Assembly: GCA_046758325.1 (NCBI GenBank) | Contig: JBHHZZ010000003.1 | Location: 12,381 to 76,380 of the forward strand | Length of the DNA: 64,000 nucleotides | Reading direction: 5' to 3' | DNA from: Thermoplasmata archaeon | GTDB taxonomy: Archaea; Thermoplasmatota; Thermoplasmata; RBG-16-68-12; JAJISG01 | Shown: positions 5,045 to 39,968 of the stretch, one piece after another | Layout of the letters: every line of letters starts with the position of its first letter | How positions within the stretch are numbered: the stretch's first letter is position 1 | Translations under genes and position numbers: made by a program | The notes under the pieces: generated by a model | What the model was told of the DNA's origin: nothing | Database searches by the model: none | What the model saw: the letters and a program-made list of their open reading frames with translations, nothing else

Positions 5045-5109
5045 TCGGCTCCGAGACCAAACCTTCATTCACCACGGGCGCTAGCTGTTACCCGCTTGGA
5101 AGAGGGCAC

Positions 5110-6321
5110 ATGAGGGAAGAGAAGGTTACTGTTGCCGTCCTATCGATTATGGTTTTTCTCATCCTGATGGGCGCGACCCTGCTGGCGCCCGTGCTGCCCT
5201 TCTACGCCAAGACTTTCGGGGCGAGCGAGTTCATGATTGGGCTGCTCATTTCGGGTTACTTTCTGGCCAGGGCTGTGTTTGACATCCCTGCGGGGGTCAT
5301 GGGGGACAGGAAAGGCCAGAAGAGGGTCATGGGCTATGGCCTGCTGCTCATCGCCACCTCCTCGGTCCTGGCGGGCCTCGCCTTCAACTACTGGCTCCTC
5401 CTGGCTGTGCGTGTGGCAGAGGGTGTCGGCTCAGCGATGTACGTGACCTCATCCTTGGCGCTTCTGGCCAAGGTGGCCCCTCAGCAGAAGAGGGGACAGT
5501 ACATGAGCTACTATGTCGCCGCCCTACTGGCTGGGGCGGTGTCGGGTCCGGCAGCGGGAGGGTACATAGCCATCTACCTGGGCCTAAGGGCTCCCTTCTT
5601 CTTCTACGCCTTGGTCGGGACCATTGCCCTCGTCCTGATGAAGGCCTTCCTGCCCGTGGAGGTCTCCAGGGGCGAGAGGATGAGCGTCTCCGTGAAGGAT
5701 GTCGGCCGCGTTCTCCGGAACCCATCCTTCTTGCTGGTCAACCTGGCCACGATGAGCGCCTTTTTCGTGCGTGGGGGCGTCAACCTGGTGATCTTTCCCC
5801 TCTGGTCCGCGGCAAGGTTCGGTTTCGACCCGGGCATCATCGGCCTCCTTCTCACCGTTGCCGCATTGTCGTCCATCGTCACCATGTTCCCTTCAGGGCA
5901 CCTGGCGGACCGCTACGGAAGGAAGGTCCCCTTCATGTCCAGCCTACTCCTGACGGCCGCCGTCCTCCCCTTCATCTTCTACTCAGACAGCTTCTCCACC
6001 CTCACCATGATGATGGTGATGTTCGGCCTGGCGATCGGTCTGCACGGACCGATGGCGGCGTGGGCTGCGGATCTGGCGCCTCCAGACAGCATGGGCATGA
6101 CCATGGGGCTCTACCGGACCCTGGGGGACATGGGGTGGGTGCTGGGCCCCCTCGTCCTGTCGTACGTGTCGGAGACCACGGGCCCCATCGCCACCAACGT
6201 CTGGCCCTTCCTGGTCGCATCCGTATGGGCGGCCTTCTTCGGCCTCCTGCTGATTCCTGCCAAGGACCCCGCCTCGGGAGCCGGACGCAAGGTACCAGTG
6301 CTGCCGGATGGCAAGGGCTAG
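5110..6321 (+). CDS. MFS transporter
   Basis: Twelve predicted TM segments and the MFS signature (GVMGDRKGQKRVM). The second half is duplicated in the same way (GHLADRYGRK). Confidence 0.8.
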   Translation: MREEKVTVAVLSIMVFLILMGATLLAPVLPFYAKTFGASEFMIGLLISGYFLARAVFDIPAGVMGDRKGQKRVMGYGLLLIATSSVLAGLAFNYWLLLAVRVAEGVGSAMYVTSSLALLAKVAPQQKRGQYMSYYVAALLAGAVSGPAAGGYIAIYLGLRAPFFFYALVGTIALVLMKAFLPVEVSRGERMSVSVKDVGRVLRNPSFLLVNLATMSAFFVRGGVNLVIFPLWSAARFGFDPGIIGLLLTVAALSSIVTMFPSGHLADRYGRKVPFMSSLLLTAAVLPFIFYSDSFSTLTMMMVMFGLAIGLHGPMAAWAADLAPPDSMGMTMGLYRTLGDMGWVLGPLVLSYVSETTGPIATNVWPFLVASVWAAFFGLLLIPAKDPASGAGRKVPVLPDGKG

Positions 6322-7337
6322 CTTGTGCTGAGGATGTGCTCCACGTACCCGAGCAGAGGAAGGTCCAGCATGGTCTTCAGACCCGGCTGGGCCCCGAGGA
6401 CCCGTGGGATCGCATTGACCACGGCGGCGATGGTAGCCTCGTCGCCCATGATACCGTCAGGGATCTCGACCTGCAGGCCAGGCTTCCCGTCGATGACGAC
6501 GACGTCCCGGGGCCTCTCGGCCCCCATGTACATCTCCAGCTCGAGGCGGATGACTTCCTTCCCTTTCACGTGAGCCACCCCGATCTGGCGGAGGCCTGCC
6601 ACTCTCCCCTCGGGAACGTTCAGATGTCGACTTGAGACCTCCTCCGGAGCCATCACCGGCTCGATGTCCACCTTCGTGGATGAGAGGTTCCAGCCGAAGG
6701 CCGCGCCTACCATGTCCAACGACTCATAGGTGCCCACGTGTCCCAGCCTTCCCTCCTTGACCATTGCCTCGAACTCCTCCTTCGTCAGGCCTGCTCCCAC
6801 CTTCCTCTGGAGGGGAAGCCTGCGCTTTGCGACGTCGACCACTCGGATGGCCTGGACACTATCCACCCGGGTGCACATGCTGCTCAGGGCAATCACCAGA
6901 GCGTCCATCACGAATCCCGGGTTAACGCCGGTTCCGAGGGCCGTGACCCCCTCCCTCCTAGCCGCCTGGTCGATCTCCTGGGCGAAGTGGCGATGGGACC
7001 TCCAGGGATAGGAGAGTTCCTCGCAGGTGGAGACGACGTTGCACCCGGCCAGGAAAGCCTCCGCCAGCTGAGGATGGGCTTCCCAGATGTAGGAGGTGGT
7101 GCAGTGGAGGAGCACATCTGCGTCTCCTCTCCTCACTGCCTCCCTCAGATCCCTCCTTACGGTTACGCCGACGTTCCCCTGCAAGCCGATGACATCTCCA
7201 ATGTCCCTCCCCACCTTGCCCTCATCGATGTCGACGGCCGCCACGATGTCAAGCCCGCGGGAGATGCACTCCCTGGCTAGCGCGGAGCCGATAGCTCCCA
7301 GACCGTATGCGACAACCCTGACATCCTCCCCCATCAC
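6318..7337 (-). CDS. NAD(P)-dependent amine / amino-acid dehydrogenase, DapB-N fold (2,4-diaminopentanoate dehydrogenase-like)
   Basis: N-terminal Rossmann motif VRVVAYGLGAIGSALA. Length of about 340 aa and overall architecture resemble Ord/AmDH4-type and DapB-like enzymes. Overlaps the upstream aminotransferase by 4 nt, so the two form an operon. Confidence 0.5.
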   Translation of the reverse strand: MMGEDVRVVAYGLGAIGSALARECISRGLDIVAAVDIDEGKVGRDIGDVIGLQGNVGVTVRRDLREAVRRGDADVLLHCTTSYIWEAHPQLAEAFLAGCNVVSTCEELSYPWRSHRHFAQEIDQAARREGVTALGTGVNPGFVMDALVIALSSMCTRVDSVQAIRVVDVAKRRLPLQRKVGAGLTKEEFEAMVKEGRLGHVGTYESLDMVGAAFGWNLSSTKVDIEPVMAPEEVSSRHLNVPEGRVAGLRQIGVAHVKGKEVIRLELEMYMGAERPRDVVVIDGKPGLQVEIPDGIMGDEATIAAVVNAIPRVLGAQPGLKTMLDLPLLGYVEHILSTS

Positions 7338-8698
7338 CGTCCCTCCTGGATGTCCTCGGCGACCTTCCCCATCGCCTTGAAGAGTCTGCTCACATCCTCC
7401 TCCGTGTGGGCGAAGGAGAGGCAGCCGCCGCCGTGCATCGTATACACACCCTCGTTGACGAGCCTAAGCTTGAGTTCCTCATCCCGCCGTCGGTGGTCGG
7501 TTCTGTAGTATACGTCCCTCGCGCTCCTGATCTCGACGCCCTCCTCGAGGGGAAAGTGGACCTGGAATAGGGATTCGATCCCAGTGCATACGACCTCCAC
7601 GCCATGGTTCCGGAAGGCGGCCTGAACCCCTTCGCGGACCCGCTTTCCGAGGCGGCCCAGCCTCTCGTAGCCACCCTCATGCTCCTCCAAATGCCTGAGG
7701 ACGATCGTCCCCGCCCTCATGCTCATGGGATTGCAGGAGAAGGTTCCACCCCCGATGGAGACCTTCAGTCCTTCTCGACCCTTTCCCCTTGGATTGGCGA
7801 GTGACATCGCCTCTTCTCTTCCGGCCACGGCCCCCACGGGCATGCCTCCCCCCAGCACCTTGCCGAGAGTGACCATGTCCGGAACCACGCCGTAGTACTC
7901 CTGGGCCCCGCCTAGACCCAGGCGGAAACCGGTGATGATCTCATCAAAGATTAGGAGGACATCCCTGGATTCCGTCTCTTCCCTCAGAGCCTTAAGGAAC
8001 TCTTCGTCGGCTGGAACGGCGCCCCCGGCCCCTAGGACAGGCTCAACGATGACTCCCGCCAGATCCTTTTCCCGTCGGATGGTATCGAGGGCCCCATCGA
8101 CGTCGTTGAAGGGAAAGGTCTTGACGACCCTCTCCAGGGAAGCGGGCATGCCGAGGGATTCAGGCTTCTCGAAGGGGCCGTGAACGGCCATGAGGAGGTC
8201 CGTGCAGAATCCGTGCCATCCTCCTTCCGCCTTGAGTATGACAGAGCGGCCTGTGTTGCCTCGAGCCAGCCGAACAGCGTACATGGTCGCTTCCGCACCG
8301 GTGTTGCAGAACTTCACGGCGTCGACGCAGGGCACGTGTCCCTGTACCATCTCCGCCAGCTCCACCTCCCACTCGTTCACTATCCCCCAGTGGACTCCTT
8401 CCTTCAGCTGCTCCCTTAGCGCCTCAAGGATGGCAGGATGACCGTGGCCAAGGATCAGGGCGAAATGACCCATCCAGTAGTCGATGTACTCGTTCCCGTC
8501 CACGTCCCAGATCCTGGATCCCCTGGCGGATTTGACGTAGAAGGGATAAGGGGGGAAGTACCGGAGACCGTGACAGACACCCCCAGGAATCACTGCCTCA
8601 CCCCTCTCAAAGAGGGCTTTCGACTTTGAGGTTCGAAGAAGGTATTTCCGATGCAGGTTCTCCAAATCGCCGACCTCCAGCGAGCATACGGAGACCAT
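7334..8698 (-). CDS. Class III (PLP) aminotransferase, glutamate-1-semialdehyde aminomutase-like
   Basis: N-terminal LFERGEAVIPGGV...RYFPPYPFYV...GSRIWDVDGNEYIDY is typical of the HemL/GSA-aminotransferase subgroup, and the PLP-lysine region is present. Confidence 0.75.
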   Translation of the reverse strand: MVSVCSLEVGDLENLHRKYLLRTSKSKALFERGEAVIPGGVCHGLRYFPPYPFYVKSARGSRIWDVDGNEYIDYWMGHFALILGHGHPAILEALREQLKEGVHWGIVNEWEVELAEMVQGHVPCVDAVKFCNTGAEATMYAVRLARGNTGRSVILKAEGGWHGFCTDLLMAVHGPFEKPESLGMPASLERVVKTFPFNDVDGALDTIRREKDLAGVIVEPVLGAGGAVPADEEFLKALREETESRDVLLIFDEIITGFRLGLGGAQEYYGVVPDMVTLGKVLGGGMPVGAVAGREEAMSLANPRGKGREGLKVSIGGGTFSCNPMSMRAGTIVLRHLEEHEGGYERLGRLGKRVREGVQAAFRNHGVEVVCTGIESLFQVHFPLEEGVEIRSARDVYYRTDHRRRDEELKLRLVNEGVYTMHGGGCLSFAHTEEDVSRLFKAMGKVAEDIQEGR

Positions 8699-8843
8699 CC
8701 AGGCCCTTAAATCTTCTTCAACCTCGAGGCGTTGACCGCCTGAGACGGCCAGGAGAAGGCTGAAGCTCTGCGGGAATGCGCTCCACTCCCATCAGCGCCC
8801 GCAGTAGGCTAAAGCTTAAGCTGGATGGAAGTCTCTTCGACTC

Positions 8844-9776
8844 GTGGCCTCCGAGAGGGTACTCGTGACGCCCCTGGATGTCGATGAGAACATCTATCTG
8901 ATCGATGTCATGATGTTCGGAGAACCCAACTTCGGTGGCGTTTACTTCATCGACGATGAGAGGAGGACCATCGTCGAGACGGGGACTTCTCATGACTACC
9001 CGAGGATTCTCTCAGCCTTGAAGCAACTGAACGTTGAGCCCTCGTCCGTACAGAATGTCATCGTCACCCACATACATCTGGACCACGCTGGCGGTGCCGG
9101 ATACCTCCTCGACTACCTGGAGAACGCGAAGGTTTACGTGCATGAGCGCGGGTTCCCTCATTTGGCCAGGCCAGAGCGTCTCCTGGAGAGCGCGTCCCGG
9201 GCCCTGGGAGAGGCTTTCAAGGACTACGGCACTCTGAAGCCCATGCCCGAAACCAGGATGGTCGCCTTGAGAGGTGGGGAGGTCCTGGACCTCGGTGGCA
9301 GGGAGCTGGAGTTCATCTACACTCCGGGCCACGCAAGGCACCACCTCTGCGTCCTGGACAGAAGCACCCGCAGCCTCTTCGCTGGGGATGCAGCCGGCAT
9401 ATACTTCCCCGAGGATGAGAGGTTGATACCAACGACCCCCTTCCCGGAGTTCGACCTTCCCAGGGCCATTGAGACGATGAGGACAGTGGCCAGGCTGAAC
9501 CCCAAGGCGCTGCTGTACACGCACTTCGGTCCCCGGCAGGATGCCCAGAAAGCGTTGAGGAATCAGCAGGCGGAGTACGAGAGGTGGGGGCGCCAGTCGA
9601 AGGAGCTGTTGGATGCGGGCGACTTGGGGGAGGCGGTGAGGACTGTGTATGAGGGGTGGTACGCTGACGTCGGAGGATTCCCGAGGCCCTTTGTAGAGAG
9701 AGTCATCGAGACCAATCTAAGGGGATTCCAGAAGTTCTTCCAGAGAACGAGGGAACATGCTTCCGGAACCCGTTAG
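8844..9776 (+). CDS. MBL-fold metallo-hydrolase
   Basis: HxHxDH motif (VIVTHIHLDHAGGAGYL) plus downstream His/Asp ligands (YTPGHARHH). Confidence 0.8.
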   Translation: MASERVLVTPLDVDENIYLIDVMMFGEPNFGGVYFIDDERRTIVETGTSHDYPRILSALKQLNVEPSSVQNVIVTHIHLDHAGGAGYLLDYLENAKVYVHERGFPHLARPERLLESASRALGEAFKDYGTLKPMPETRMVALRGGEVLDLGGRELEFIYTPGHARHHLCVLDRSTRSLFAGDAAGIYFPEDERLIPTTPFPEFDLPRAIETMRTVARLNPKALLYTHFGPRQDAQKALRNQQAEYERWGRQSKELLDAGDLGEAVRTVYEGWYADVGGFPRPFVERVIETNLRGFQKFFQRTREHASGTR

Positions 9777-10623
9777 GAGACTCGCAGAGGAGATAGCCTC
9801 GGATACGCGATCCGGTGCCCTTCCTCTTGCACAGAAGGCCCTGGAGGCATACAGCCTACTGGGTCAGCTTTCCGGGAACGAAACTTCCGCTCGCGAGCTT
9901 CACGGACTTCTGAGGATGGCCCAACCTTGGATGGCCGCCGTGGTCAACGCAGCGCAGATGGGATGGGAGCTTGCCCGATCTGCGAGATGGGGAGGACTGC
10001 CCGGGCTGAAGGAGCGGTTGGCCGATGCAAGGCAGTTGGTGGCCCGCGAGGCCATCGGTATCCTCACGGAGTGCAAAACGGTGGTGACCGTCAGCTATAG
10101 CAGCGATGTCTTCGAGGCCCTGCGAAGACGTCAGGAAACCGGTTCCGCATTTGAGGTGTATGTCTGCGAATCCAGGCCTCTGAATGAAGGCGTTGCCTTG
10201 GCAAGGGACTTGAAAGATGTGGGTGTCAGGGCGACCCTGGTGGTCGATGCGGCTGGGCCCAGCCTAGTGGCCCGGTCGGATGCCGTCATCACTGGGGTCG
10301 ATTCCCTCCTGCGTGAAGGCAGTCTAATCAACAAGATAGGGACGATGTCCCTAGCACTGACCTGCTCTGAGTTCAGCGTTCCCTTCTATCCCATCATGGA
10401 GGTCCTCAAGGTCGAGGTGGAAGGCCATGAGATATCTCCGGTCGAGAAGTCCAGGGACCCGGGGGAGGTGAGCGAGGACCTGGAGGCGTTAAACTTCTAC
10501 TTCGAGAGGGTGCCGTCGAGACTCGCCACATCTCTGGTGACGGATGCGGGCATCCTGAAGGTGTCGTCCTTACTGAACCGCTTTCGGCGGCCGGAGGACC
10601 TCCTGAGCTTCTACTTGCCATGA
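9757..10623 (+). CDS. IF-2B family protein (eIF-2B alpha/beta/delta-related; ribose-1,5-bisphosphate / methylthioribose-1-phosphate isomerase family)
   Basis: PF01008-like core (VVTVSYSSDVFEALRRRQETGSAFEVYVCESRPLNEGVALARDL...ITGVDSLLREGSLINKIGT). Shorter (288 aa) than characterised isomerases. Overlaps the MBL gene by 20 nt. Confidence 0.6.
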   Translation: MLPEPVRRLAEEIASDTRSGALPLAQKALEAYSLLGQLSGNETSARELHGLLRMAQPWMAAVVNAAQMGWELARSARWGGLPGLKERLADARQLVAREAIGILTECKTVVTVSYSSDVFEALRRRQETGSAFEVYVCESRPLNEGVALARDLKDVGVRATLVVDAAGPSLVARSDAVITGVDSLLREGSLINKIGTMSLALTCSEFSVPFYPIMEVLKVEVEGHEISPVEKSRDPGEVSEDLEALNFYFERVPSRLATSLVTDAGILKVSSLLNRFRRPEDLLSFYLP

Positions 10624-10649
10624 GAGCAAGCTCTCCACATACGTTATCC

Positions 10650-11009
10650 CTACTTGCCGTAGATGGAGATGCGGTTGCCTTCTGTATCCATGAGTTCTGC
10701 CAGCCTCTCCCCAGTGTGAGGGTTTATGACCTCGGGCTCTCGGGTAAGGGTAACCCCCTTGGTCTTGAGCTCCCTGTAAGCCTCTTCCACATCGTCAACC
10801 CTGAAGACCACCCTCATACCTTCATTTTTGCTTCTGTCCTCTGGGGAGAGATTACTCTCGTGCAGGCCGATCCACACCCCCTCAGTGGCTAGCTCTGACC
10901 AGCCCTCGGATTCGAATTTCAGGGGAATGCCGAGGGTCTGCGTGTAGAACTTGATGGCGCGGCTCATATCACTCACGAAGACAACGACGTGGTCAACCTT
11001 CTTGAGCAT
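10650..11009 (-). CDS. VOC / glyoxalase family protein
   Basis: MLKKVDHVVVFVSDMSRAIKFYTQTLGI matches the glyoxalase/bleomycin-resistance fold. 119 aa. Confidence 0.75.
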   Translation of the reverse strand: MLKKVDHVVVFVSDMSRAIKFYTQTLGIPLKFESEGWSELATEGVWIGLHESNLSPEDRSKNEGMRVVFRVDDVEEAYRELKTKGVTLTREPEVINPHTGERLAELMDTEGNRISIYGK

Positions 11010-11068
11010 GTCTACATTAGGTTGGTGGTCCGTTTACCCTTTTGGTAGACGGGGCTCCCCGTGAGACG

Positions 11069-12436
11069 CTAGAACTCTGTTACGCCCGTGAACCTGAAGT
11101 TTTCGATTTTCACAGGAGGTACGGTGGATGCTCCCACACCCAGCCAGCTAGAGTAGCGGTGGGGCTCTCTCTCTTTGCCTATCAGCGTGGCCTCTGCAAA
11201 GGCCTCCATCAGGCCCTGAGTGAACCTCAGGTTCTTGACGGCCCCTCTGATCTCCCCATTCTCTATGAGGAAAGTGCCATCCCTAGTCATGCCGGTTATC
11301 AGGGCCTTCGGGGCATCAATAGGGTTAGTGTAGTGGAACCTGGTGACGTAGATCCCCCGCTTTGTCTCCGCCACCATCTCATCTTCGCTCGAGTCCCCCG
11401 TCTCCAGGAAAGTGTTCATGGCTAGCGGACCAATCGGGTTCGGCGGTAGCAAGGCATGACCCGTTGTCTTCTTGCCCTCTCGCCCCGCTGTGTAGGAGTC
11501 GTAGACGACGCCCCTGGCAACTCCGCTCTCCAAGAGAAGGACCCTCTTCTTGGGTACCCCCTCCCCGTCGAAAGGCACGGGAACGCCCTCTGGTCTCGTC
11601 CCCTCGTCCCAGAGAGTGATGGACTCCCCCGTGACCTTCTGCCCGAGATTGCCACTCACGTAGGACCTCCCCTCCTGGTAGGCAATGGCTCCGAAGGTGA
11701 TAGAGGCTAGGGACTGGACCATGTCGGCGACAGCGTTGCTCTCCAAGACCACGGTGTACTCCCCCGGCTCGATGGCCTTGGCACCGATGGATCCCGCCGC
11801 CTTCTCCGCGGCCCTTTCTGCCATGCGTCGGTGATCAAGCTTCGAGATGTCCACCTTCAGATCCTCGCCCCAACCGTAGCCCTTCTCTCCGTTCGCTTCC
11901 TTGATGGCTGTCACCACCAGATGGCCCAGCGTCAAGCTGTTGTGCGCCCTGATTCCCAGGGAGTTGGACACCGTGATGGAACGCGTGGCCGCCTCCAGGG
12001 CCCCGAAGGCTTTTTCGACCCCCTGAGAGGAAACTATGGAGACGATGTCCTCCACCACCTTCGCCCTCTCCTCGGGCGTGGACCCGTCCGTCTTGGCAGA
12101 GAAGTTGGGGACATCCTCGCTCCCCTCATCTTCCGGGAGGGAGACGAATTCCTTGTTGGGCTTCTGGGCACGCGCCATCTTGCCCGCCCTCTCGATGGAT
12201 TCCTTTATGGAGGCCTCGTCGGTCCTGTTGGTCCTGACGATGCCTATCTGCTTGTCGTAGACCAGTCGGAGTATGAGAACAGTATCGGACGTGGCCACGT
12301 TCTGGTGGATGATGGAATTGGCGTACCTGGTGAGGGAGGTCTTGGTACTCAGGAGGATGGCTTCCGTCTGGTCGGCTGGGCTGAGGTCCAGAACCCTGTC
12401 GACTATGTCGAAGGCCTCTGACCTGGCTGGCGCCAT
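11069..12436 (-). CDS. pmbA: PmbA/TldE-family metalloprotease modulator (pair 1)
   Basis: TldD/PmbA family architecture without the HExxxH. Immediately downstream of, and abutting, the TldD gene. Confidence 0.75.
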   Translation of the reverse strand: MAPARSEAFDIVDRVLDLSPADQTEAILLSTKTSLTRYANSIIHQNVATSDTVLILRLVYDKQIGIVRTNRTDEASIKESIERAGKMARAQKPNKEFVSLPEDEGSEDVPNFSAKTDGSTPEERAKVVEDIVSIVSSQGVEKAFGALEAATRSITVSNSLGIRAHNSLTLGHLVVTAIKEANGEKGYGWGEDLKVDISKLDHRRMAERAAEKAAGSIGAKAIEPGEYTVVLESNAVADMVQSLASITFGAIAYQEGRSYVSGNLGQKVTGESITLWDEGTRPEGVPVPFDGEGVPKKRVLLLESGVARGVVYDSYTAGREGKKTTGHALLPPNPIGPLAMNTFLETGDSSEDEMVAETKRGIYVTRFHYTNPIDAPKALITGMTRDGTFLIENGEIRGAVKNLRFTQGLMEAFAEATLIGKEREPHRYSSWLGVGASTVPPVKIENFRFTGVTEF

Positions 12437-13876
12437 CTAGGCCACCCCCACCCGAACCCCTCTGAACCGAGCTGGGGAGGTGCCGTGGCCGACGCGGGCC
12501 ACCTGACCCGGCTCCCCCTTACCACAGTTGGGGACCCCCCATAGGTGCCAGCGGTCCTCGTCACAGACGGCGTCACAACCCCTCCAGAACTCGTAGGTGA
12601 TGCCCGTGTAGTTCGGGTACTTGATGAGTTCCCCGAGCTCACCGCCCACAATCTCCCAGGCCACCTCCGTCGCAAACTGAAAGTTCAGGCGCAGGTCGTC
12701 GATGGACCAGGACTTGTTCGTCTCCATATATATGCCTTCGTCGGTGTCCTCCACCAGCTCGTCGAGGTCCCAATCCCCCGGGAGGAGGCTGATGTTGGTC
12801 ATCCTGATGAGGGGTATCCTGCCCCAGCCGTCGGCCCGCATATTGCCACTGGTCTCGTGTCCGAACAACTCCGCGGTTTCCCGGGAGTTCTGGTAGCCCA
12901 CGAAGATTCCTTCTCTGACGAGGTCAACCCGCTTTGCGGGAACGCCCTCGTCGTCGTACCCGAAGGTACCCAGGCCGCCTTCCACCATGGAGTCGGCCAC
13001 GATGTTGACCTTTTCAGACCCGTACCTGAAGGAGTCCAGCTTGTCAGGCGTCAGGAAGGAGGTTCCAGCGTAGCTGGCTTCCATTCCCAGGACCCTGTCA
13101 AGCTCCGTCGGGTGGCCGCAGGACTCATGGACCTGCAATGCCAGCTGGTTCGTGCCGATGATGACGTCCCTCTTCCCTGATGGGCACTTCTTCGCGTCTA
13201 GCAGGGCAACGGCCTCCCGGGCCGTCCTCTCCGCATTCCCCACCAGATCCATGGACTCGATGAACTCCCACCCCGCTGTCCTGAAGTTTCCTCCGAAGGG
13301 GGCCGGATAGGACCTCTTGTGTACCTCGCCACTCCGCAGCGCCAGGACTTCTATGCCGGCTCCCGACTGCAGGATGTCCTGCTCGATGTAGGAGCCCTCA
13401 CTGGACGCAAAAGTCTTCCTCTCCCTGAAGGCCTGGAACTGAGCCTTTCGGACCTTTATGGCCTCGTCCTTACTCGGGGTTCTCTGGGCATCCATCAGCA
13501 GCTCCATCTTCTCCTCCAGAGGCACATCCCACGGATCCATCCGGAAGGCGGACCTGTAGCTGCCCTCCTTGGACCCTACCTCCGCGAGGCTTACCTCCTC
13601 CCTCCTCACCCGGGCGGAAGCCCTGGCGATTCGGACGGCCTCCTCGGCGACTCTCCTGATTTCCCCGTTCTCCATCCCCGACGAGGAGGAGAAACCCCAT
13701 GAGCCGTCTGCCAAGGCTCGGACGCCGAAGCCTCCGCTCACGTTCTCCGTCAAGCTCTCCACGTTGTCATTCTTGACGATGATGGCGCTCAGTCGTCTCT
13801 CAACCAGCCTTATGTCGACGTAGCTAGCCCCTGCCTTGAGGGCGGTTTCAATCGCCATGTCGCAGGTCTCCCTCAT
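12437..13876 (-). CDS. tldD: TldD metalloprotease (pair 1)
   Basis: Conserved HESCGHPTELDRVLG zinc-binding motif and GxC motifs. 479 aa. Confidence 0.85.
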   Translation of the reverse strand: MRETCDMAIETALKAGASYVDIRLVERRLSAIIVKNDNVESLTENVSGGFGVRALADGSWGFSSSSGMENGEIRRVAEEAVRIARASARVRREEVSLAEVGSKEGSYRSAFRMDPWDVPLEEKMELLMDAQRTPSKDEAIKVRKAQFQAFRERKTFASSEGSYIEQDILQSGAGIEVLALRSGEVHKRSYPAPFGGNFRTAGWEFIESMDLVGNAERTAREAVALLDAKKCPSGKRDVIIGTNQLALQVHESCGHPTELDRVLGMEASYAGTSFLTPDKLDSFRYGSEKVNIVADSMVEGGLGTFGYDDEGVPAKRVDLVREGIFVGYQNSRETAELFGHETSGNMRADGWGRIPLIRMTNISLLPGDWDLDELVEDTDEGIYMETNKSWSIDDLRLNFQFATEVAWEIVGGELGELIKYPNYTGITYEFWRGCDAVCDEDRWHLWGVPNCGKGEPGQVARVGHGTSPARFRGVRVGVA

Positions 13877-13926
13877 CAGAACCCTCCGATATTCTCCCTT
13901 AGCCGGGAGCCATGATAAACCCTTTC

Positions 13927-14895
13927 CTAGATGTGGACTTCTGTGCCAAAACCCGACTTCCGGGCTATCTCATAGGCCACGGATGCGGTCGCCGCGTCCT
14001 CGAAGGCCATGCCGACAGACCTGAACAGAGTGATGTCGTCCTTGCTCATCCTTCCCGTCTTCATGCCGGCTACCAGCTCCCCCAGCTCGGCATAGATGTC
14101 GTCGGGCGAGAAGGCGCCCCGGTCGATGGCTTCCCCGAGGTCACGGGCCTCGTTCAACACACCCTCCTTGGAGTCCACCACTACCCTCGACCTTCGGTAG
14201 GTCTCAGCATCGAGTTCGCGCACCACGCCCCCTCCTATGGAGTTGACGTGAACACCCGGCTCGAGCCACTCTCCCTGAAGTACCGGGCTCCGGGAGTTGG
14301 TGGCTGTGACCACCACGTCGCTCCCGCGAACGACCTCCTCAGCCCCGTCTGCCACTAGGGCCTCCACATCGAGCGTGTCCACGAGTTCCTTACAGAAGCT
14401 CCTGAGGTTCTCCCGATTTCTGCTGTACGCCTTGACCAGCTGAACGTCGCGGACAGTCCAGAGGCCAAGGATCTGGGTCCGAGCCTGGGTCCCTGTTCCT
14501 ATTATTCCCACGATCTGGGCATCCACTAGTGAGAGGGATCTTGCCGCCAGGGCGCTCGCAGCTCCCGTCCGCATGGCGGTTACGTACCTCCCATCCATCA
14601 AGCATAGGGGGTCACCACTTCCGCTGTCCAGTAGGAGGATTGCACCGGTTATGGAAGGAAGGCCTTTCTCGCGATTCCCGGGAAAATCGGAGACCACTTT
14701 GACCGCTAGAGACCTCATACCCCCGAGGTACGCTGCCATGACGAAGGTATTCCCCTCCTCGCCGATGGGCGTCATGACCCTCATTGGCATGGAGACGGTG
14801 CCCCGGGCGTGCTCTACGAAACCCCGCTCCACCGCGTCGATAACGGTGCGCATGTCCAGAAACTCCTCCAAGTCCCTCTGGCTTAGGACGAGCAT
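13927..14895 (-). CDS. Ornithine cyclodeaminase / mu-crystallin family protein (may be an archaeal alanine dehydrogenase-type enzyme)
   Basis: The OCD_Mu_crystallin fold runs through the whole sequence (MLVLSQRDLEEFLDMRTVIDAVERGF...). Rossmann motif GIIGTGTQA. Start chosen at Met35 of the long ORF. Confidence 0.75.
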   Translation of the reverse strand: MLVLSQRDLEEFLDMRTVIDAVERGFVEHARGTVSMPMRVMTPIGEEGNTFVMAAYLGGMRSLAVKVVSDFPGNREKGLPSITGAILLLDSGSGDPLCLMDGRYVTAMRTGAASALAARSLSLVDAQIVGIIGTGTQARTQILGLWTVRDVQLVKAYSRNRENLRSFCKELVDTLDVEALVADGAEEVVRGSDVVVTATNSRSPVLQGEWLEPGVHVNSIGGGVVRELDAETYRRSRVVVDSKEGVLNEARDLGEAIDRGAFSPDDIYAELGELVAGMKTGRMSKDDITLFRSVGMAFEDAATASVAYEIARKSGFGTEVHI

Positions 14896-15000: not shown

Positions 15001-17277
15001 GTGGTGGCGGTGGAGCAGGGAGCCTGGCTGTTACTGGCTTTAGGACTACCCTTTCTGTCCGCGCTTCTCTCGCCCCTCCTTGAGAGGCTGAGGCCCAACC
15101 TGGCCGCGATTTTTGGATCAGCCGTCGGCGCAGTCTCCTTCCTCACTCTTCTCGCGGTTTGGACCGTGGGAGGAGCGGAGAGGGTAGCCTACCCCTGGAT
15201 TCCCTCCGCTGCCATCTCCTTCATCCTTCGGCTCGACGGATTGGCGTTCTTATTCGCCCTCCTCATAACGGGAATCGGATCCCTGATCCTCGCCTACTCC
15301 CACAGCTACATGGCTCAGGAGAAGGGGAAACCCCGTTTCTACGCCTACATGTCCCTCTTCATGGGCTCAATGCTCGGCCTGGTCCTGGCAGGCGACCTCA
15401 TCCTTCTGTTCCTCTTCTGGGAGCTTACTACCCTGAGCTCCTTCCTTCTCATAGGCTTTCGGAGGGAGGAGAGGCGGTCGGTCCTCGCAGCCCTCAAGGC
15501 CCTCCTGATAACCGGGACTGGGGGCCTGGTCCTTCTTCTGTCCTTTCTGATGATGAGGGCCGCCGTGGGTTCCTTTGACCTGGAAGTCGTGCTGCAATCC
15601 GGCGACGTCCTCAGATCCAGCGCCCTGTTCCCTCTCATCCTGATCCTCTTCCTGGTAGCGGTGGCCGCCAAGTCCGCCCAGTTCCCGCTGCACATCTGGC
15701 TCCCCGATGCAATGGTAGCTCCCACGCCGGTGAGCGCGTACCTCCACTCCGCCGCCATGGTGAAGGCTGGCATATTCCTCCTGGCGCGCTTCCTGCCAGG
15801 CCTGATTTCGGTGGAGTGGGAGATGGCGCTCATTCCCCTAGGGACGGCGACCATGATCATAGGGGCGCTCCAGGCAATCCGGTCTGTGGAACTCAAGAGG
15901 ATACTTGCGTACAGCACGATCAGTCAGCTGGGCCTTCTAGCCTCCGTCTTCGGAATGGCCACCCTAACAGGTCAGGAGGCAGGGCTGTTTCACCTGCTGA
16001 ATCACGCTCTCTTCAAGGCCTCCCTCTTCCTGGTGGCCGGGGCGATTACCCTAGCCACGGGCTTCACGAATATCCGAGAGCTGGGCGGGCTCCGCAGGAG
16101 GATGCCTGTCACGGCCATCGCCTGCGGCCTCGCCGCCTTCTCTATGGCTGGCATCCCTCCACTGGGTGGCTTCCTCAGCAAGGAAACTTACTACGAGGCC
16201 GCCCTCCAGAGCGGCTATCTCTGGGCTCCCATCCTGGCGGTCCTAGGAGGGGGCCTCACCTTCGCTTACAGCCTCTACTTCTTCACGAGGATATTCCTAG
16301 GGAAAGGAGGTGGAACCAAGTCCCAGGAGCCCCTTTCTCTCGCGATTCCAGCGCTGATTCTGGCAGCGTTAACCCTCGTCCTCGGTATCATGCCCACCTT
16401 GGCCTCGGGGCTCGTATCCGCCTCTACATCTCCAGAGAACATCTTCGCCCCGGGCCTTCTTCGGGGCCCCATCACCACGGCCCTAATGAGCCTCTCCTCT
16501 GCCGTCGTGGGAATTCTGATCCTCTGGAGGTACGAGGCTGTCGCCTCCTTCCTTGATAGGGTTGCCACCACGCTGGGACGGATAACCCCCGACGCCGTGT
16601 ACGAAGGCTTCATCGGAGCTGCCCGCCGTTCCTGTGCTACCTTCGGTCTCATGGTTCAGAACGGGTCCCTCAGGAGATATACAGCTGTCCTGATCCTCTT
16701 CGTGCTGGCCGCCCTCATGTGGCCCTTATCCCTACCGGTGCTGGAGATTCCCGCCGTAGAGGACACCAGCGGCATCGTCCTTGCCATCATTCTGTCGGCC
16801 ATGGTGGTCTTCTCCTCCCTGGCAGCAGGACTGAAGGACACCCTCCATGCCATCCTCAGCCTCTCGGGCATGGGCTTCCTCCTCGCCATGACCTTCATGC
16901 TCCTCAATGCCCCGGACCTGGCCATGACCCAGATCCTCGTGGAAATGGTCTTCCTGGTGATCTTTCTGATAGTACTCCACAAGATTCCTTTCAAGGCCAT
17001 CCGTCCATCGAGGCCGCGAGGCTCTGTGGACCTTCTCATGGGGATCTTCATGGCCCTGGGGGTCGCCTACCTGGTTGCCCTCTCCATCGCGGCCTTCTCT
17101 CAATCGGTGGCCACATACTACCTGGACCCCAGCCTTCTGGACTTGACAGGCGGGAGGAACGTCGTCAATGTCGTCGTCACCGACTTCAGGGCCTTCGACA
17201 CCCTCGGCGAGATCACCGTCATAGGCCTGGCGTCCTTGGCCGTGTACACCCTCCTCCGGAGGTGGAAGGCTGACTAG
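15001..17277 (+). CDS. mrpA: Mrp antiporter subunit A (MnhA/MrpA, NuoL-like, with fused MrpB-like C-terminal domain)
   Basis: 758 aa polytopic protein with NuoL/ND5 antiporter-like motifs (WLPDAMVAPTPVSAYLHSAAMVKAG). GTG start. First gene of a seven-gene, overlapping mrpA-G array. Confidence 0.85.
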   Translation: MVAVEQGAWLLLALGLPFLSALLSPLLERLRPNLAAIFGSAVGAVSFLTLLAVWTVGGAERVAYPWIPSAAISFILRLDGLAFLFALLITGIGSLILAYSHSYMAQEKGKPRFYAYMSLFMGSMLGLVLAGDLILLFLFWELTTLSSFLLIGFRREERRSVLAALKALLITGTGGLVLLLSFLMMRAAVGSFDLEVVLQSGDVLRSSALFPLILILFLVAVAAKSAQFPLHIWLPDAMVAPTPVSAYLHSAAMVKAGIFLLARFLPGLISVEWEMALIPLGTATMIIGALQAIRSVELKRILAYSTISQLGLLASVFGMATLTGQEAGLFHLLNHALFKASLFLVAGAITLATGFTNIRELGGLRRRMPVTAIACGLAAFSMAGIPPLGGFLSKETYYEAALQSGYLWAPILAVLGGGLTFAYSLYFFTRIFLGKGGGTKSQEPLSLAIPALILAALTLVLGIMPTLASGLVSASTSPENIFAPGLLRGPITTALMSLSSAVVGILILWRYEAVASFLDRVATTLGRITPDAVYEGFIGAARRSCATFGLMVQNGSLRRYTAVLILFVLAALMWPLSLPVLEIPAVEDTSGIVLAIILSAMVVFSSLAAGLKDTLHAILSLSGMGFLLAMTFMLLNAPDLAMTQILVEMVFLVIFLIVLHKIPFKAIRPSRPRGSVDLLMGIFMALGVAYLVALSIAAFSQSVATYYLDPSLLDLTGGRNVVNVVVTDFRAFDTLGEITVIGLASLAVYTLLRRWKAD

Positions 17278-17290
17278 CGCAGTTGCCCGG

Positions 17291-17695
17291 GTGATCACCA
17301 ACATCGTCCTCTACATCGGCATCCTCTTCTCCCTCACCTTGCTCGTGGCAGGGCACAACGAACCCGGCGGTGGCTTCGTGGCCGGAGCTATGACAGCTAG
17401 CGTCTTTGCGCTTCTCTACCTCGTATTCGGGAAGGACTACGTGGAATCCAGGTTCCAGACGGACTACAGGTCCATCACAGCCGCGGGGCTCCTCGTCACG
17501 ATTTTCTTCGCCCTGATGCCCATGGCCCTGGGGGAGCCGGTTCTTTCCAGCATTCTGTTCACGTTGGACGTACCCCTGGTAGGTCAGATTGAGCTCGGCT
17601 CCGCCGTGGGGTTTGACTTCGGGATCTACCTCGTCGTGGTTGGCTCCGTTCTGACCATCCTGAGAAGGAGCGCGGGGGGTGAAGAACCTGGTTAG
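17291..17695 (+). CDS. mrpB: Mrp antiporter subunit B
   Basis: 134 aa, four TM segments, MnhB-like (GHNEPGGGFVAGAM). Its position follows mrpA. Confidence 0.75.
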   Translation: MITNIVLYIGILFSLTLLVAGHNEPGGGFVAGAMTASVFALLYLVFGKDYVESRFQTDYRSITAAGLLVTIFFALMPMALGEPVLSSILFTLDVPLVGQIELGSAVGFDFGIYLVVVGSVLTILRRSAGGEEPG

Positions 17696-18017
17696 TTTCC
17701 TGGCCCTCGTCATCGGCCTCCTCTTCGGAATAGCCGTCTATGCCATACGTCACGGAAACGCCATCAGAATCGTGATTGGCCTAGGCATCCTCTCCAACGC
17801 CGTCAACCTCATGCTCATAGCGGTGGGGTTCAAAGGGGAGACTGCCCCCATCCTCGGGCTGGCTGGCTCCCCATCAGACCCCCTCGTCCAGGCCCTCATC
17901 CTCACCGCCATCGTGATCGGTTTCGGGGTCACTTCCTTCGCCCTCGTCCTGAGCTACGCCCTCATCAGGGAGGAGGGCAGCACCGAGGCCGACGACTTCA
18001 GGAGGCTCAAGGGATGA
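17679..18017 (+). CDS. mrpC: Mrp antiporter subunit C (NuoK-like)
   Basis: 112 aa, three TM segments, MnhC/NuoK-like. GTG start overlapping the end of mrpB. Confidence 0.75.
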   Translation: MKNLVSFLALVIGLLFGIAVYAIRHGNAIRIVIGLGILSNAVNLMLIAVGFKGETAPILGLAGSPSDPLVQALILTAIVIGFGVTSFALVLSYALIREEGSTEADDFRRLKG

Positions 18018-19516
18018 GCCTGCTCGTCGCACTGCCAGTGGTTCTGCCGCTGACCACAGCCGTCGTGCTGCTAGCCCTCTTCCATTGGCCCCGCGTGCAG
18101 AAGGGCATCGCGATAGGGTCCAATGTTCTTCAGCTCTCCCTCTCCTTCGCCCTCCTTGCGCAGGTCCAGAACAGGGGAATCCAGGTCCATCTCCTCTCTG
18201 GCTGGCCACCACCCTACGGGATAATCCTCGTGGCCGACCTGCTGAGTTCCACCCTCCTTACCGTAACGGCCGGCGTCTTCCTGGCCAGTCTTGTCTACAG
18301 CCTGGGATACATGCGAAAGGAGGTCCTCCGGTTCTCCTACCTCCCCCTCTTCTTCTTTCTCATCACGGGAGTGAGCGGTGCCTTCCTCACGGGGGACATC
18401 TTCAACCTCTTCGTCTTCTTCGAGGTCATGCTGCTCTCCACTTATGCGCTGGTGATCTCCTGGGATCCCGAGGGCCTCATCAGCCGGGCAGAGAAGCTGG
18501 AGGCCACCTTCAAATACCTGGTCCTCAACCTCATCGGAGCCTCCGTCATGCTCCTGGCCATCGGTACCCTCTACGGTACCACGGGGACCCTCAACATGGC
18601 GGATCTCTCGGTGAGGATACGGGACCTTCGGGAGAGCGGCGTGGTCCATCTCGACCTCATCGCCTTACTCTTCGTAGCTGTCTTCGGCCTCAAGGCGGCC
18701 GCCGCCCCCTTCCACTTCTGGCTTCCCGACGTGCACCCCTCGGCCCCCACCCCCGTGAGTGCCATCCTCAGTGGAATCCTCATCAAGGTGGGTGCCTACG
18801 GGCTGATCCGCCTGACCACCCTCCTGTTTGTCGGTCTTCAAGGTCTTACGGAGGTCATCCTCATCCTTGGCTTGGTGACCCTCCTCCTTGGTGGGGTGAT
18901 GGCCGTAGGTCAGCTAGACATCAAGAGGCTGCTGGCGTACAGCAGTATCAGTCAGATGGGTTTCCTGCTGTTAGGGGTAGGCCTCGCCACCGGTCAGGCC
19001 ATCGCCGCGGCCCTCTTCTTCCTCATCAATCATGCCATCATCAAGAGCATGCTTTTCCTGGCAGCGGGTGGGGTAATGCACATGACCCGCGAGAGGTCCA
19101 TGCTGCGTATGGGAGGCCTTGCCAGGTCATCCCCCTTCCTCGCCGTATCCTTCCTGATAGGCGTCATGGCCCTGGCTGGGCTCCCGCCCCTCAACGGCTT
19201 CATCAGCAAGCTGCTCATCTTTCAGACCCTCATCGACGCTGGCAGGCTGCCCTATGTCCTAATCGCCCTGATCGGTGCCTTCCTGAGCGTCCTGTACACC
19301 TTCAGGGCCTGGCTCAACATATTCTGGGGTGAGTCGAAGCATGTAGTGGACGGCAGTGCTAGCCTGACCCTCTTGCTCCCGGTAGGGTCCCTGGCAGTCC
19401 TCTGCCTCATCCTGGGCATCTTCCCAGAGCCCTTGGTCAACCTCGTGTCCCAGGCAGGAATACAGGCCGCCTCCCCCGACCTATATGTCGAGGCTGTACT
19501 GGGGGGTGCAGGGTGA
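18014..19516 (+). CDS. mrpD: Mrp antiporter subunit D (NuoN/NuoM-like)
   Basis: 500 aa with antiporter-like subunit motifs (WLPDVHPSAPTPVSAILSGILIKVGAYG). Overlaps mrpC by 4 nt. Confidence 0.85.
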   Translation: MSLLVALPVVLPLTTAVVLLALFHWPRVQKGIAIGSNVLQLSLSFALLAQVQNRGIQVHLLSGWPPPYGIILVADLLSSTLLTVTAGVFLASLVYSLGYMRKEVLRFSYLPLFFFLITGVSGAFLTGDIFNLFVFFEVMLLSTYALVISWDPEGLISRAEKLEATFKYLVLNLIGASVMLLAIGTLYGTTGTLNMADLSVRIRDLRESGVVHLDLIALLFVAVFGLKAAAAPFHFWLPDVHPSAPTPVSAILSGILIKVGAYGLIRLTTLLFVGLQGLTEVILILGLVTLLLGGVMAVGQLDIKRLLAYSSISQMGFLLLGVGLATGQAIAAALFFLINHAIIKSMLFLAAGGVMHMTRERSMLRMGGLARSSPFLAVSFLIGVMALAGLPPLNGFISKLLIFQTLIDAGRLPYVLIALIGAFLSVLYTFRAWLNIFWGESKHVVDGSASLTLLLPVGSLAVLCLILGIFPEPLVNLVSQAGIQAASPDLYVEAVLGGAG

Positions 19517-32555: not shown

Positions 32556-32794
32556 GTGATCACCGGACAAGCGGTTGAAGACCTTCACGGTAAAATAAGT
32601 TGGCAACTTCACGGTTCTGTGGCATAATGGCTGGCGTTCGTCAGCCTAAGGAATCCCCGGAGGAATCTCCTCCGACTGGTAACCGCTGTAATCCGTGATC
32701 AGGGGCCTGAGGATACTGACTAGCGAATTGCCAAGGTTTCGAAATCTGTTGAACAATGCTTAAGAAAGCAGGGGAAGCATGGTGCCCCGATAGC

Positions 32795-37902: not shown

Positions 37903-37906
37903 TTGT

Positions 37907-39958: not shown

Positions 39959-39968
39959 GAGGTTGTAA

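Follow-up and report, generated by a model that had tools for sequence, protein, structure and literature searches.

The archaeal DNA analysed here, a stretch of 64,000 nucleotides from an uncultured member of the Thermoplasmata (hereafter the window), encodes two TldD/PmbA pairs. TldD/E is a widespread protease, with known roles in microcin processing and CcdA degradation. Taken together, the observations presented below make it quite probable that the window contains two tldD-pmbA (tldE) operons of family M103 (formerly U62) that are independent of each other and diverged long ago, with the mechanism, turnover role and non-redundancy that we propose for them.

Domains, catalytic residues and solved relatives

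Two complete TldD/PmbA pairs had been reported in an earlier note on this DNA, and both stand: the open reading frames agree to the base (Table 1), TldD1, PmbA1 and TldD2 match all three of the Pfam domains PF01523, PF19290 and PF19289, PmbA2 matches only the second and third, and the matches of all four proteins exceed the gathering cut-offs with E-values (as low as 2e-58) far beyond chance. The accompanying description of each pair, as a TldD bearing HESCGHPTE(L/A)DRVLG next to a motif-less PmbA, was likewise accurate: HESCGHPTELDRVLG is read in TldD1 from residue 250 onward and HESCGHPTEADRVLG in TldD2 from residue 247 onward, the catalytic residues are present in both TldDs, and HExxxH is found in neither PmbA1 (which is also devoid of any Cys) nor PmbA2. 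Within the operons, PmbA1 begins at the base following the TldD1 stop codon (spacing 0 nt), and the gap between TldD2 and PmbA2 amounts to 4 nt. TldD1 is 100% identical to the NCBI entry P0001 ('TldD/PmbA family protein [Thermoplasmata archaeon]') and TldD2 to P0121, the two entries being located on one 93,774-bp contig; an exact-sequence look-up of PmbA2 found no record.

Table 1. Positions of the two tldD-pmbA operons, their active-site and promoter-like elements, and neighbouring genes in the window
Feature	Position	Strand	Basis
TldD1, catalytic subunit of pair 1	12437-13876	minus	ORF, 479 aa
PmbA1 (TldE-type), non-catalytic partner of pair 1	11069-12436	minus	ORF, 455 aa
TldD1 active-site motif HESCGHPTELD (H250, E251, H255, E258, D260)	13097-13129	minus	alignment with E. 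coli TldD
TldD1 C451-G-K453, third metal ligand and clamp lysine	12518-12526	minus	aligns with E. coli C454/K456
Putative BRE/TATA-like promoter element of TldD1, AAGGGTTTAT	13915-13924	minus	38 nt upstream of TldD1 ATG
Ornithine cyclodeaminase/mu-crystallin family (OCD) gene, context	13927-14853 (longest ORF to 14997)	minus	Pfam
TldD2, catalytic subunit of pair 2	59137-60549	plus	ORF, 470 aa, GTG start
PmbA2 (TldE-type), non-catalytic partner of pair 2	60554-61876	plus	ORF, 440 aa
TldD2 active-site motif HESCGHPTEAD (H247, E248, H252, E255, D257)	59875-59907	plus	alignment with E. coli TldD
TldD2 C444-G-K446, third metal ligand and clamp lysine	60466-60474	plus	alignment with E. coli TldD
Putative BRE/TATA-like promoter element of TldD2, AAGGGTTTAA	59080-59089	plus	47 nt upstream of TldD2 GTG
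NUDIX gene, neighbour of pair 2	58305-59000	minus	Pfam
Urocanase (hutU), convergent with pair 2, context	61924-63573	minus	Pfam

The E. coli TldD residues H262/E263/H267/E270/D272/C454/K456, for which the ligand roles have been described (PMC5810440), pair with H250/E251/H255/E258/D260/C451/K453 in TldD1 and with H247/E248/H252/E255/D257/C444/K446 in TldD2; the MAFFT alignment supports the His, Glu (E263), Cys and Lys equivalences and has a gap right behind the motif that mis-pairs E270/D272, an equivalence that in both TldDs comes from the phmmer alignment and an ungapped reading. All metal-ligand and clamp residues of the E. coli enzyme are present in both TldDs and absent in both PmbAs, and the ligands are retained in 119 of 120 homologues of TldD1 (and likewise in 119 of 120 of TldD2), which speaks against a pair inactivated through the loss of zinc ligands, an outcome that the earlier note had named as a refutation. 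Domain architecture, TldD residues and ligand-free partner all agree with membership of the family (MEROPS M103 / Pfam PmbA_TldD), and both pairs look functional as judged from their sequences.

TldD1 (E=1e-25) and TldD2 (E=1.7e-31) both match E. coli TldD (5nj5_A) over their full length, and the best solved relatives of the partners, likewise similar over the full length, are distant (for PmbA1 6j6a_A, E=5e-26, and T. maritima 1vl4_A, E=1.5e-24; for PmbA2 1vl4_A, E=2e-26), 6J6A being recorded as 'Zinc-dependent protease, TldD/PmbA family' and the records of both 6J6A and 1VL4, as seen, carrying no demonstrated function. We take the fold of the TldD/PmbA proteins to be settled by such full-length matches to solved structures. 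The pairs share the three-domain architecture of E. coli TldD/TldE (PmbA; PDB 5NJ5, MEROPS M103) at identities of 25-27% for the TldDs and 19-20% for the PmbAs, but differ from it by a 6-residue insertion shortly after HExxxH, behind the conserved Glu/Asp (HESCGHPTE.D-RVLG.E as compared to HEAVGHGLEGD in E. coli), and by their layout in adjacent operons, since tldD and tldE of E. coli lie ~1 Mb apart. Neither TldD reaches the cut-off of the NCBIfam model NF008006 (E. coli-type TldD, 513 bits; TldD1 97, TldD2 121) or that of NF040952 (635 bits; TldD1 170, TldD2 236), and because both score under these equivalog cut-offs, functional transfer would hold at superfamily level. We assume that NF040952, an archaeal TldD model described only as 'zinc metalloprotease TldD', represents the Sulfolobus type, and on this assumption neither pair appears to be orthologous to the characterised Sulfolobus enzymes.

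Two tldD-tldE pairs, Sso0660/0661 and Sso1151/1152, are likewise found in the archaeon S. solfataricus (Hu et al. 2012, PMC3497727), where TldD is described as a protease that depends on zinc and carries HExxxH and GxC motifs, and TldE as having little or no activity (PMC3497727); the motif reads HEAIGH in Sulfolobus and HESCGH here. More than one tldD/tldE pair is present in many species, and the Sulfolobales have five homologues, the two S. solfataricus pairs among them (Hu et al., PMC3497727). Two pairs are thus nothing unusual, multiple pairs being already known as common: the state observed here is real, but ordinary and previously described, several TldD/E pairs in an archaeon being already on record, and it has little import beyond annotation. 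We saw no unusual feature in the window, neither a new domain nor a lost ligand nor a gene for a dedicated substrate.

Divergence, distribution and proposed role of the pairs

The identity between TldD1 and TldD2 is 33%, that between PmbA1 and PmbA2 24-25%, and that of any TldD to any PmbA 18-29%, a pattern that puts the TldD/PmbA split before the split between the pairs, each pair having diverged as a unit. Recent segmental duplication was rejected, as the copies are far from the near-identical duplicates that the earlier note had set out as a further refutation (33% for the TldDs, 25% for the PmbAs), and the two pairs are best described, on their sequences, as old paralogues that diverged anciently. 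Moreover, dN/dS ratios of 0.08-0.16 against orthologues indicate purifying selection on all four genes, and long co-retention under such selection fits with non-redundant roles of the pairs.

A TldD1-type gene is present in all 80 related genome loci, with an adjoining PmbA1-type partner in 69 of the 80 (the loci that lack one are mostly short, or end close to the TldD1-type gene). The subfamily of pair 1 is slow-evolving and common to many bacterial phyla and scattered archaea (pair-1-type TldDs of Korarchaeia or Thermoplasmata are ~55% identical to those of Chloroflexota, Bacillota or Zixibacteria), and that of pair 2, the named members of which are all archaeal, is widespread in related Thermoplasmata. 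The pairs thus belong to different subfamilies, pair 2 being core to this Thermoplasmata lineage. In the window the pairs lie 45 kb apart on opposite strands, separated by ~40 genes and each furnished with a promoter-like element; their proximity has no evident meaning, and a third TldD/PmbA homologue was not found within the 64 kb. Both orthologues are also contained in GCA_012974945.1 and GCA_012974985.1, each of which holds two different TldD2 orthologues and thousands of contigs, and which appear to be whole metagenome assemblies.

On the model of the homologous E. coli TldD/E, for which the heterodimer, the metal site and the threading mechanism have been described (PMC5810440), each operon most likely encodes its own heterodimeric hollow shell, the pairing being suggested by adjacency and homology. 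TldD would bind one Zn or Fe, with both HExxxH histidines and a distal Cys as ligands (H250/H255/C451 in TldD1, H247/H252/C444 in TldD2), the motif Glu would act as the catalytic base, and the PmbA subunit, having lost all ligands, would just complete the chamber. Unfolded peptides would be expected to enter via a narrow pore, to bind as a beta-strand in a largely sequence-independent manner and, once threaded, to be cleaved to short fragments. Since genes of amino-acid catabolism abound in the region (among the products of the window are hutU, the OCD-family enzyme, aminotransferases, a 2-oxoacid dehydrogenase complex and an M20 peptidase), the likeliest role would be cytoplasmic turnover of peptides and unfolded proteins that supplies amino-acid catabolism, and the two pairs were probably retained for non-redundant roles (e.g. 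different regulation, gating or substrate size). A general turnover role is not guaranteed, because some family members are sequence-specific (Amm12/13) and some are reportedly N-deacetylases, and the report that a Sulfolobus TldD is active as a homodimer (PMC3497727) is at odds with an obligate-heterodimer model.

The sub-functionalisation suggested by the earlier note is plausible, and the Amm12/Amm13 pair of ammosamide biosynthesis (PMC12424672) illustrates that an extra TldD/E pair may come to specialise in one given substrate; pairs of that type, however, lie inside a biosynthetic gene cluster together with a precursor peptide, and neither pair here does. A more far-reaching proposal, which we advance only tentatively, is that the pairs are specialised chambers that are not interchangeable, pair 2 being archaea-specific and housekeeping and pair 1 belonging to an unusually conserved cross-domain subfamily with another role; the conserved substrate or role of pair 1 may then differ from those of the E. 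coli and Sulfolobus enzymes, and within this lineage pair 1 may have a connection with the genes next to it, of the OCD family and of diamino-acid catabolism. Genomes with two divergent pairs under purifying selection offer natural tests of differences in gating or regulation, and the window, with two clean and intact operons of different subfamilies in one organism, is suited to cognate and crossed co-expression.

Origin of pair 1

Pair 1 could also be a xenologue, i.e. a whole tldD-pmbA operon that this branch of the Thermoplasmata took up from bacteria (Chloroflexota- or Bacillota-like), with pair 2 alone being vertical, an origin that we regard as unlikely. The ranked match lists lend themselves to it: TldD1 has ~20 close clusters in the Thermoplasmata, at 63-80% identity, after which the best-ranked named matches are all bacterial (57-61%); among species-representative genomes just 3 species lie near TldD1 (73-77%), and copies of other Thermoplasmata (53-55%) resemble it no more closely than bacterial ones do (51-60%); and TldD2 has over 120 clusters of close homologues (>=67% identity) in comparison to ~21 (>=63%) for TldD1. 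In NJ trees with the root placed on pair 2, however, the window clade never falls inside the bacteria, which form one weakly supported clade, and the archaeal members are basal (deep nodes with 25-50% bootstrap). Furthermore, the PmbA1-type partner carries a 4-residue and a 1-residue insertion that none of the 11 archaeal members lacks (these come from the window clade, from another clade of Thermoplasmata and from Korarchaeia/Culexmicrobium), whereas the 1-residue insertion occurs in none of the 58 bacterial members and the 4-residue site is a full gap in 54 of them, holding one residue in 3 and four residues in 1. These archaea-specific indels in the PmbA partner argue against a recent bacterial transfer of pair 1, which the trees do not support either. 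Of the two histories that the earlier note had weighed for the pairs, ancient paralogy stands (33% and 25% identity) and a recent transfer from bacteria is unsupported, the deep branching being weak; with such weak deep nodes, an ancient inter-domain transfer of pair 1, in either direction, is possible.

Promoter-like elements and gene neighbourhoods

The promoter-like element of TldD1 (AAGGGTTTAT) sits in the 50-nt gap behind the stop of the OCD gene, with its AAGGTTTAT core retained at the orthologous loci L010 and L012, and that of TldD2 (AAGGGTTTAA) sits in the divergent NUDIX/TldD2 intergenic region, with its core retained in L090 and L092. The pattern AAGGGTTTAW has only two occurrences in the window, one ahead of either TldD gene, for an expectation of 0.05, but it had been built from these very two sequences; orthologous promoters retain only an AAGGTTTAW core, and other genes of the window have similar purine-rich and TTTAA/TTTAT boxes. 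On account of this circularity, the core-only conservation and the similar boxes elsewhere, we rejected a shared dedicated operator, and AAGGGTTTAW is best read as a general BRE/TATA consensus.

The neighbours named in the earlier note (OCD gene, NUDIX and hutU) proved correct by Pfam. The OCD gene, which is called at 308 aa on public contigs and scores below every NCBIfam equivalog cut-off, lies directly upstream of pair 1 and runs in one direction with TldD1 and PmbA1 (gaps of 50 nt and 0 nt). Only the close clade, L010-L012, keeps this block, L004/L005 have aminotransferase and DAP-dehydrogenase-like genes nearby, and the OCD adjacency was not found at the other 7 archaeal and ~70 bacterial pair-1-type loci; a functional link between the OCD gene and pair 1 was rejected on the grounds of this confinement.

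The same genes bear on the idea that one pair is a small-molecule amidase or N-deacetylase, with pair 1 acting together with neighbouring amino-acid-metabolism genes (here meaning the OCD family, a class-III aminotransferase and a 2,4-diaminopentanoate-dehydrogenase-like gene). The close spacing and shared direction of the OCD-TldD1-PmbA1 block in L010-L012 would suit it, as would the N-deacetylases that the title of the review by Vobruba et al. (2022) places in the family; we give it little credence, given that the OCD adjacency is restricted to close relatives, that TldD1 has its own promoter-like element behind the OCD stop, and that it retains every one of the peptidase-type ligands and clamp residues.

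It is similarly unlikely that either pair, or both, would be a protease dedicated to maturing a ribosomal peptide natural product (microcin B17- or pearlin-like), as hinted in the earlier note: the MccB17 leader is removed by E. coli TldD/E (PMC5810440), pathway-specific TldD/E proteins are known (Amm12/13, PMC12424672) and TldD/E genes are often located outside the biosynthetic cluster (PMC10885120), but the gaps around both pairs (0-136 nt) hold no ORF, the Gly/Ser/Cys-rich small ORFs within ~5 kb all lie wholly inside real genes, and the neighbourhoods in relatives consist of housekeeping or catabolic genes. None of the nearby candidates for the Gly/Ser/Cys-rich precursor peptides envisaged by the earlier note was plausible, and a Pfam scan of 46 window ORFs (5 of which had no Pfam match) revealed no YcaO, cyclodehydratase, PEARL, radical-SAM peptide maturase or peptide exporter; the scan left out ~5 long ORFs, namely three in an Mrp antiporter block and the purine-synthesis and ribonucleotide-reductase genes, the latter two being recognised from syntenic loci. 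The precursor peptide and modifying enzymes that a RiPP system of the microcin B17, LAP or pearlin type requires were thus absent, the former from the surroundings of both pairs and the latter from the scanned ORFs, and the sole radical-SAM match of the scan is a lipoyl synthase within a 2-oxoacid dehydrogenase operon.

Around pair 2, the order NUDIX-TldD2-PmbA2-hutU-FTCD is retained in the relatives' loci L090 and L092. A functional link of pair 2 with hutU or the NUDIX gene was rejected: close relatives keep the order, yet both genes face the other way from the pair. In the bacterial locus L056, hutU and NUDIX genes also stand near the pair, which is probably a coincidence because unrelated genes (a Na/H exchanger, a PTS EIIA and a PfkB kinase) stand between.

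Divergence and integrity of the two pairs

The two TldD/PmbA pairs (pair 1 on the minus and pair 2 on the plus strand; TldD being the predicted catalytic subunit and PmbA its predicted non-catalytic partner) are ancient paralogues, both of them intact. TldD1 and TldD2 are 33% identical (244 bits, phmmer) and PmbA1 and PmbA2 24-25% (94-98 bits), while any TldD compared with any PmbA gives 18-29% (26-55 bits); the TldD/PmbA duplication therefore predates the split between the pairs, and the members of each pair diverged together. Near-identical recent duplicates, which the earlier note named as an outcome that would overturn its reading, do not fit such values. The coordinates that it gave for the two pairs match mechanical ORF lists exactly, and Pfam agrees with its naming of the neighbours: an ornithine cyclodeaminase (OCD)/mu-crystallin family gene, a NUDIX gene and the urocanase gene hutU. 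PmbA_TldD Pfam domains were matched by all four proteins (E-values to 2e-58), and phmmer found no third homologue in the window. PmbA1 follows the TldD1 stop codon with no intervening base, and 4 nt separate the TldD2 stop from the PmbA2 start; the flanking gaps measure 50 nt (OCD/TldD1) and 59 nt (PmbA1/glyoxalase-family gene) at pair 1, and 136 nt (divergent NUDIX/TldD2) and 47 nt (convergent PmbA2/hutU) at pair 2. The window (G+C 59.5%) yielded no tRNA genes and no Rfam matches.

Features of the window discussed in the text
Feature	Position	Strand	Remarks
PmbA1	11069-12436	-	455 aa
TldD1	12437-13876	-	479 aa
TldD2	59137-60549	+	470 aa, GTG start
PmbA2	60554-61876	+	440 aa
Active-site segment with zinc motif, TldD1	13097-13129	-	HESCGH
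Active-site segment with zinc motif, TldD2	59875-59907	+	HESCGH
AAGGGTTTAW box, pair 1	13915-13924	-	boxes 38-47 nt upstream of TldD starts
AAGGGTTTAW box, pair 2	59080-59089	+	as above
Class-III aminotransferase and 2,4-diaminopentanoate-dehydrogenase-like gene	6318-8698	-	
OCD-family gene	13927-14853	-	
Mrp/Mnh-type antiporter operon	15001-20261	+	multi-subunit
Lipoate-dependent operon	36997-43281	+	six genes
Protein with signal-like stretch	56029-57327	+	432 aa
Three ORFs	32756-34967 and 22640-23281		213-340 aa
Fourth ORF	33738-34475		

The motifs quoted by the earlier note were found (HESCGHPTELDRVLG at aa 250 of TldD1 and HESCGHPTEADRVLG at aa 247 of TldD2), and both PmbA proteins lack HExxxH, as it had stated. 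Full-length phmmer alignments match both TldD proteins to the E. coli TldD structure (E=1e-25 for TldD1 and 1.7e-31 for TldD2), in which the metal is bound by His262, His267 and Cys454, the Ala mutant of the motif glutamate (Glu263) is catalytically inactive, and the clamp is tethered by Glu270, Asp272 and Lys456 (Ghilarov et al. 2017, PMC5810440). All seven positions are kept in TldD1 (H250, E251, H255, E258, D260, C451, K453) and in TldD2 (H247, E248, H252, E255, D257, C444, K446); of these, MAFFT bears out the two His, the motif Glu, the Cys and the Lys, whereas its gap immediately behind the motif mis-pairs E270 and D272, whose equivalents were taken from phmmer alignments and ungapped reading. 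None of the seven is kept in PmbA1 or PmbA2, and E. coli TldE likewise lacks these metal-ligand and clamp residues. Furthermore, the HE..GH and CGK motifs occur in 119 of the 120 homologues listed, for TldD1 and TldD2 alike, and all four genes give pairwise dN/dS values of 0.08-0.16 when compared with their orthologues (approximate, since dS is near saturation). With ligands kept and such ratios, neither pair is a pseudo-enzyme lineage, contrary to the inactive pseudogenes that the earlier note had named as its other refuting outcome.

Both subfamilies carry a cysteine inside the zinc motif (71 of the 81 pair-1-type sequences of the tree alignment, loci L010-L089, the remainder having Ile or Val; 11 of 11 pair-2-type sequences sampled in the same alignment), where E. 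coli TldD has Val and Sulfolobus TldD has Ile. Both are further distinguished from E. coli TldD by six extra residues inserted shortly behind the motif.

Both TldD1 and TldD2 score below the NCBIfam equivalog cut-offs of the E. coli TldD model and of the archaeal TldD model, and they represent two further, uncharacterised subfamilies. Many species are reported to have more than one tldD/tldE pair, and Sulfolobales have five TldD/E homologues each, including two pairs in S. solfataricus (Sso0660/0661 and Sso1151/1152; Hu et al. 2012, PMC3497727), and each window TldD is 100% identical to an NCBI 'TldD/PmbA family protein [Thermoplasmata archaeon]'. In light of this precedent and annotation, the two-pair finding is real but ordinary: the pairs add members from two uncharacterised subfamilies of a known protease kind, and no particular meaning is evident in their lying within 64 kb of each other.

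Distribution and origin of the two subfamilies

None of the best 120 TldD2 clusters falls below 67% identity, and every named one is Thermoplasmata or Euryarchaeota (close relatives include Euryarchaeota RBG_16_68_12 / RBG_19FT_COMBO_69_17). A library of 50%-identity representatives contains some 40 clusters at 37-50% identity to TldD2, below which scores fall to the 31-35% where TldD1 sits; among the ten nearest that were looked up, the four named ones are all archaeal (Bathyarchaeota, two clusters of Methanomassiliicoccales and a marine 'thaumarchaeote' fosmid). The PadR, HAAS, NUDIX, TldD2, PmbA2, hutU and FTCD neighbourhood is kept in relatives at 77-78% identity. This limited evidence makes pair 2 a subfamily of archaea and part of the core gene set of the wider lineage.

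Close TldD1 clusters number only about 20 (63-80% identity; three close species at 73-77% among species-representative genomes, with relatives including MAGs labelled Methanomassiliicoccales or Thermoplasmatota archaeon), and the next named matches are all bacterial (57-61%). The next tier of the species-representative scan (51-60%) comprises Chloroflexota, Bacillota, Zixibacteria, Desulfobacterota and other phyla, together with archaea (a Korarchaeia-like Thermoproteota MAG, Ca. Culexmicrobium, a Methanobacteriota MAG and five Thermoplasmata MAGs); two 59-60% relatives that were looked up have clearly bacterial settings (YidC, RNase P protein, MnmE; or Lon, ValRS). All 80 loci hold a TldD1-type gene, and 69 have a PmbA1-type partner beside it, most of the other 11 being short or ending near the gene. 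This distribution first suggested that pair 1 was acquired from bacteria.

Against a recent transfer, the window clade is never nested inside bacteria in NJ trees (Kimura distances, 200 bootstraps; TldD, PmbA and their concatenate, rooted on pair 2), in which the pair-1 type forms a 100% clade and bacteria one weakly supported clade, with deep nodes at 25-50% support. Moreover, two PmbA1-type insertions (alignment columns 302 and 341-344; window PmbA1 around ...AIKEANGEKGYGWGE...) are common to all 11 archaeal members (Thermoplasmata, Korarchaeia-like and Culexmicrobium): the 1-residue insertion is found in 0 of 58 bacteria, and the 4-residue one is complete in 1 of 58, a single residue in 3 and a full gap in 54. 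Trees and indels thus make pair 1 of the window the 'archaeal version' of a cross-domain subfamily, for which an ancient inter-domain transfer, in either direction, is possible. As to the phylogenetic choice raised by the earlier note, the pairs are ancient paralogues, and a recent bacterial transfer of pair 1 is not supported.

The two insertions could serve as a domain-diagnostic marker within the pair-1 subfamily. Adjacency of OCD, TldD1 and PmbA1 is confined to the close clade, and relatives keep the gene order of the block Mrp-OCD-TldD1-PmbA1-IF-2B-like-MBL, with identities of 65-77%.

Predicted roles and genomic context

By homology, each operon would encode a heterodimeric shell with a single Zn/Fe site on TldD and PmbA as the non-catalytic half; by analogy, unfolded peptides would pass a narrow pore, be bound as a beta-strand in a largely sequence-independent manner and then be cut back stepwise (PMC5810440; PMC10885120). 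Their likeliest role in this organism would be to clear peptides and unfolded proteins from the cytoplasm and so to supply amino-acid catabolism. That two divergent pairs have long been kept side by side under purifying selection suggests that their roles are not redundant; since binding in this family is largely sequence-independent, the pairs would be at least as likely to differ in regulation, gating or substrate length as in peptide sequence. The interpretation of the earlier note is partly supported, sub-functionalisation being a candidate reading. Specialised TldD/E paralogues exist, e.g. Amm12/13 (PMC12424672), which lie inside a biosynthetic cluster, whereas the window pairs do not.

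The search for Gly/Ser/Cys-rich precursor peptides near both pairs returned no intergenic small ORF, every small ORF of that composition within ~5 kb lying wholly inside a real gene, and Pfam scans of 46 window ORFs (all but about five of the long ones; 5 of the 46 had no match) revealed no YcaO-type or other RiPP machinery. The window gives no hint of dedicated substrates. It encodes an M20 peptidase, a lipoate-dependent 2-oxoacid dehydrogenase operon, aminotransferases, a 2,4-diaminopentanoate-dehydrogenase-like protein, hutU, an OCD-family enzyme and an ETF-QO-like oxidoreductase, the gene set of a heterotroph that lives by breaking down amino acids.

Upstream of each TldD lie a BRE/TATA-like box (AAGGGTTTAW) and a GGAGG-like site. 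The box occurs twice in 64 kb against 0.05 expected (for a pattern derived post hoc), and common regulation of both operons is possible; its core alone is conserved in orthologues, and other window genes have similar general BRE/TATA boxes. We read it as the putative ordinary promoter of each operon.

The class-III aminotransferase and 2,4-diaminopentanoate-dehydrogenase-like genes lie near the OCD-family gene, and together they may form a set for degrading ornithine or diamino acids at the flanks of pair 1; one related locus (L004) has these genes around its pair 1 as well. The OCD-family protein falls below every NCBIfam equivalog cut-off. The cation/proton antiporter operon and the OCD gene are transcribed divergently. 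Lipoyl synthase, E1-alpha, E1-beta, E2, E3 and a lipoate-protein ligase, the products of the six-gene operon, make up a complete archaeal lipoate-dependent 2-oxoacid dehydrogenase system, which fits amino-acid catabolism.

In a bacterial MAG (L056), NUDIX and hutU (the latter sharing 64% identity with its archaeal counterpart in the window) lie within 6 kb upstream of a TldD1-type pair (4403-8920; 9962-12744), recalling the neighbours of pair 2; unrelated genes intervene, and the likeness is probably a coincidence. Three ORFs have no Pfam match, nor has a fourth that overlaps two of them on the opposite strand. The 432-aa protein, also without a Pfam match, has a signal-like hydrophobic stretch at its N terminus and, at its C terminus, another hydrophobic stretch that leads into basic residues, and unannotated genes (444 and 434 aa) occupy the corresponding position, upstream of the PadR/HAAS pair, in two orthologous loci of pair 2 (L090 and L092).
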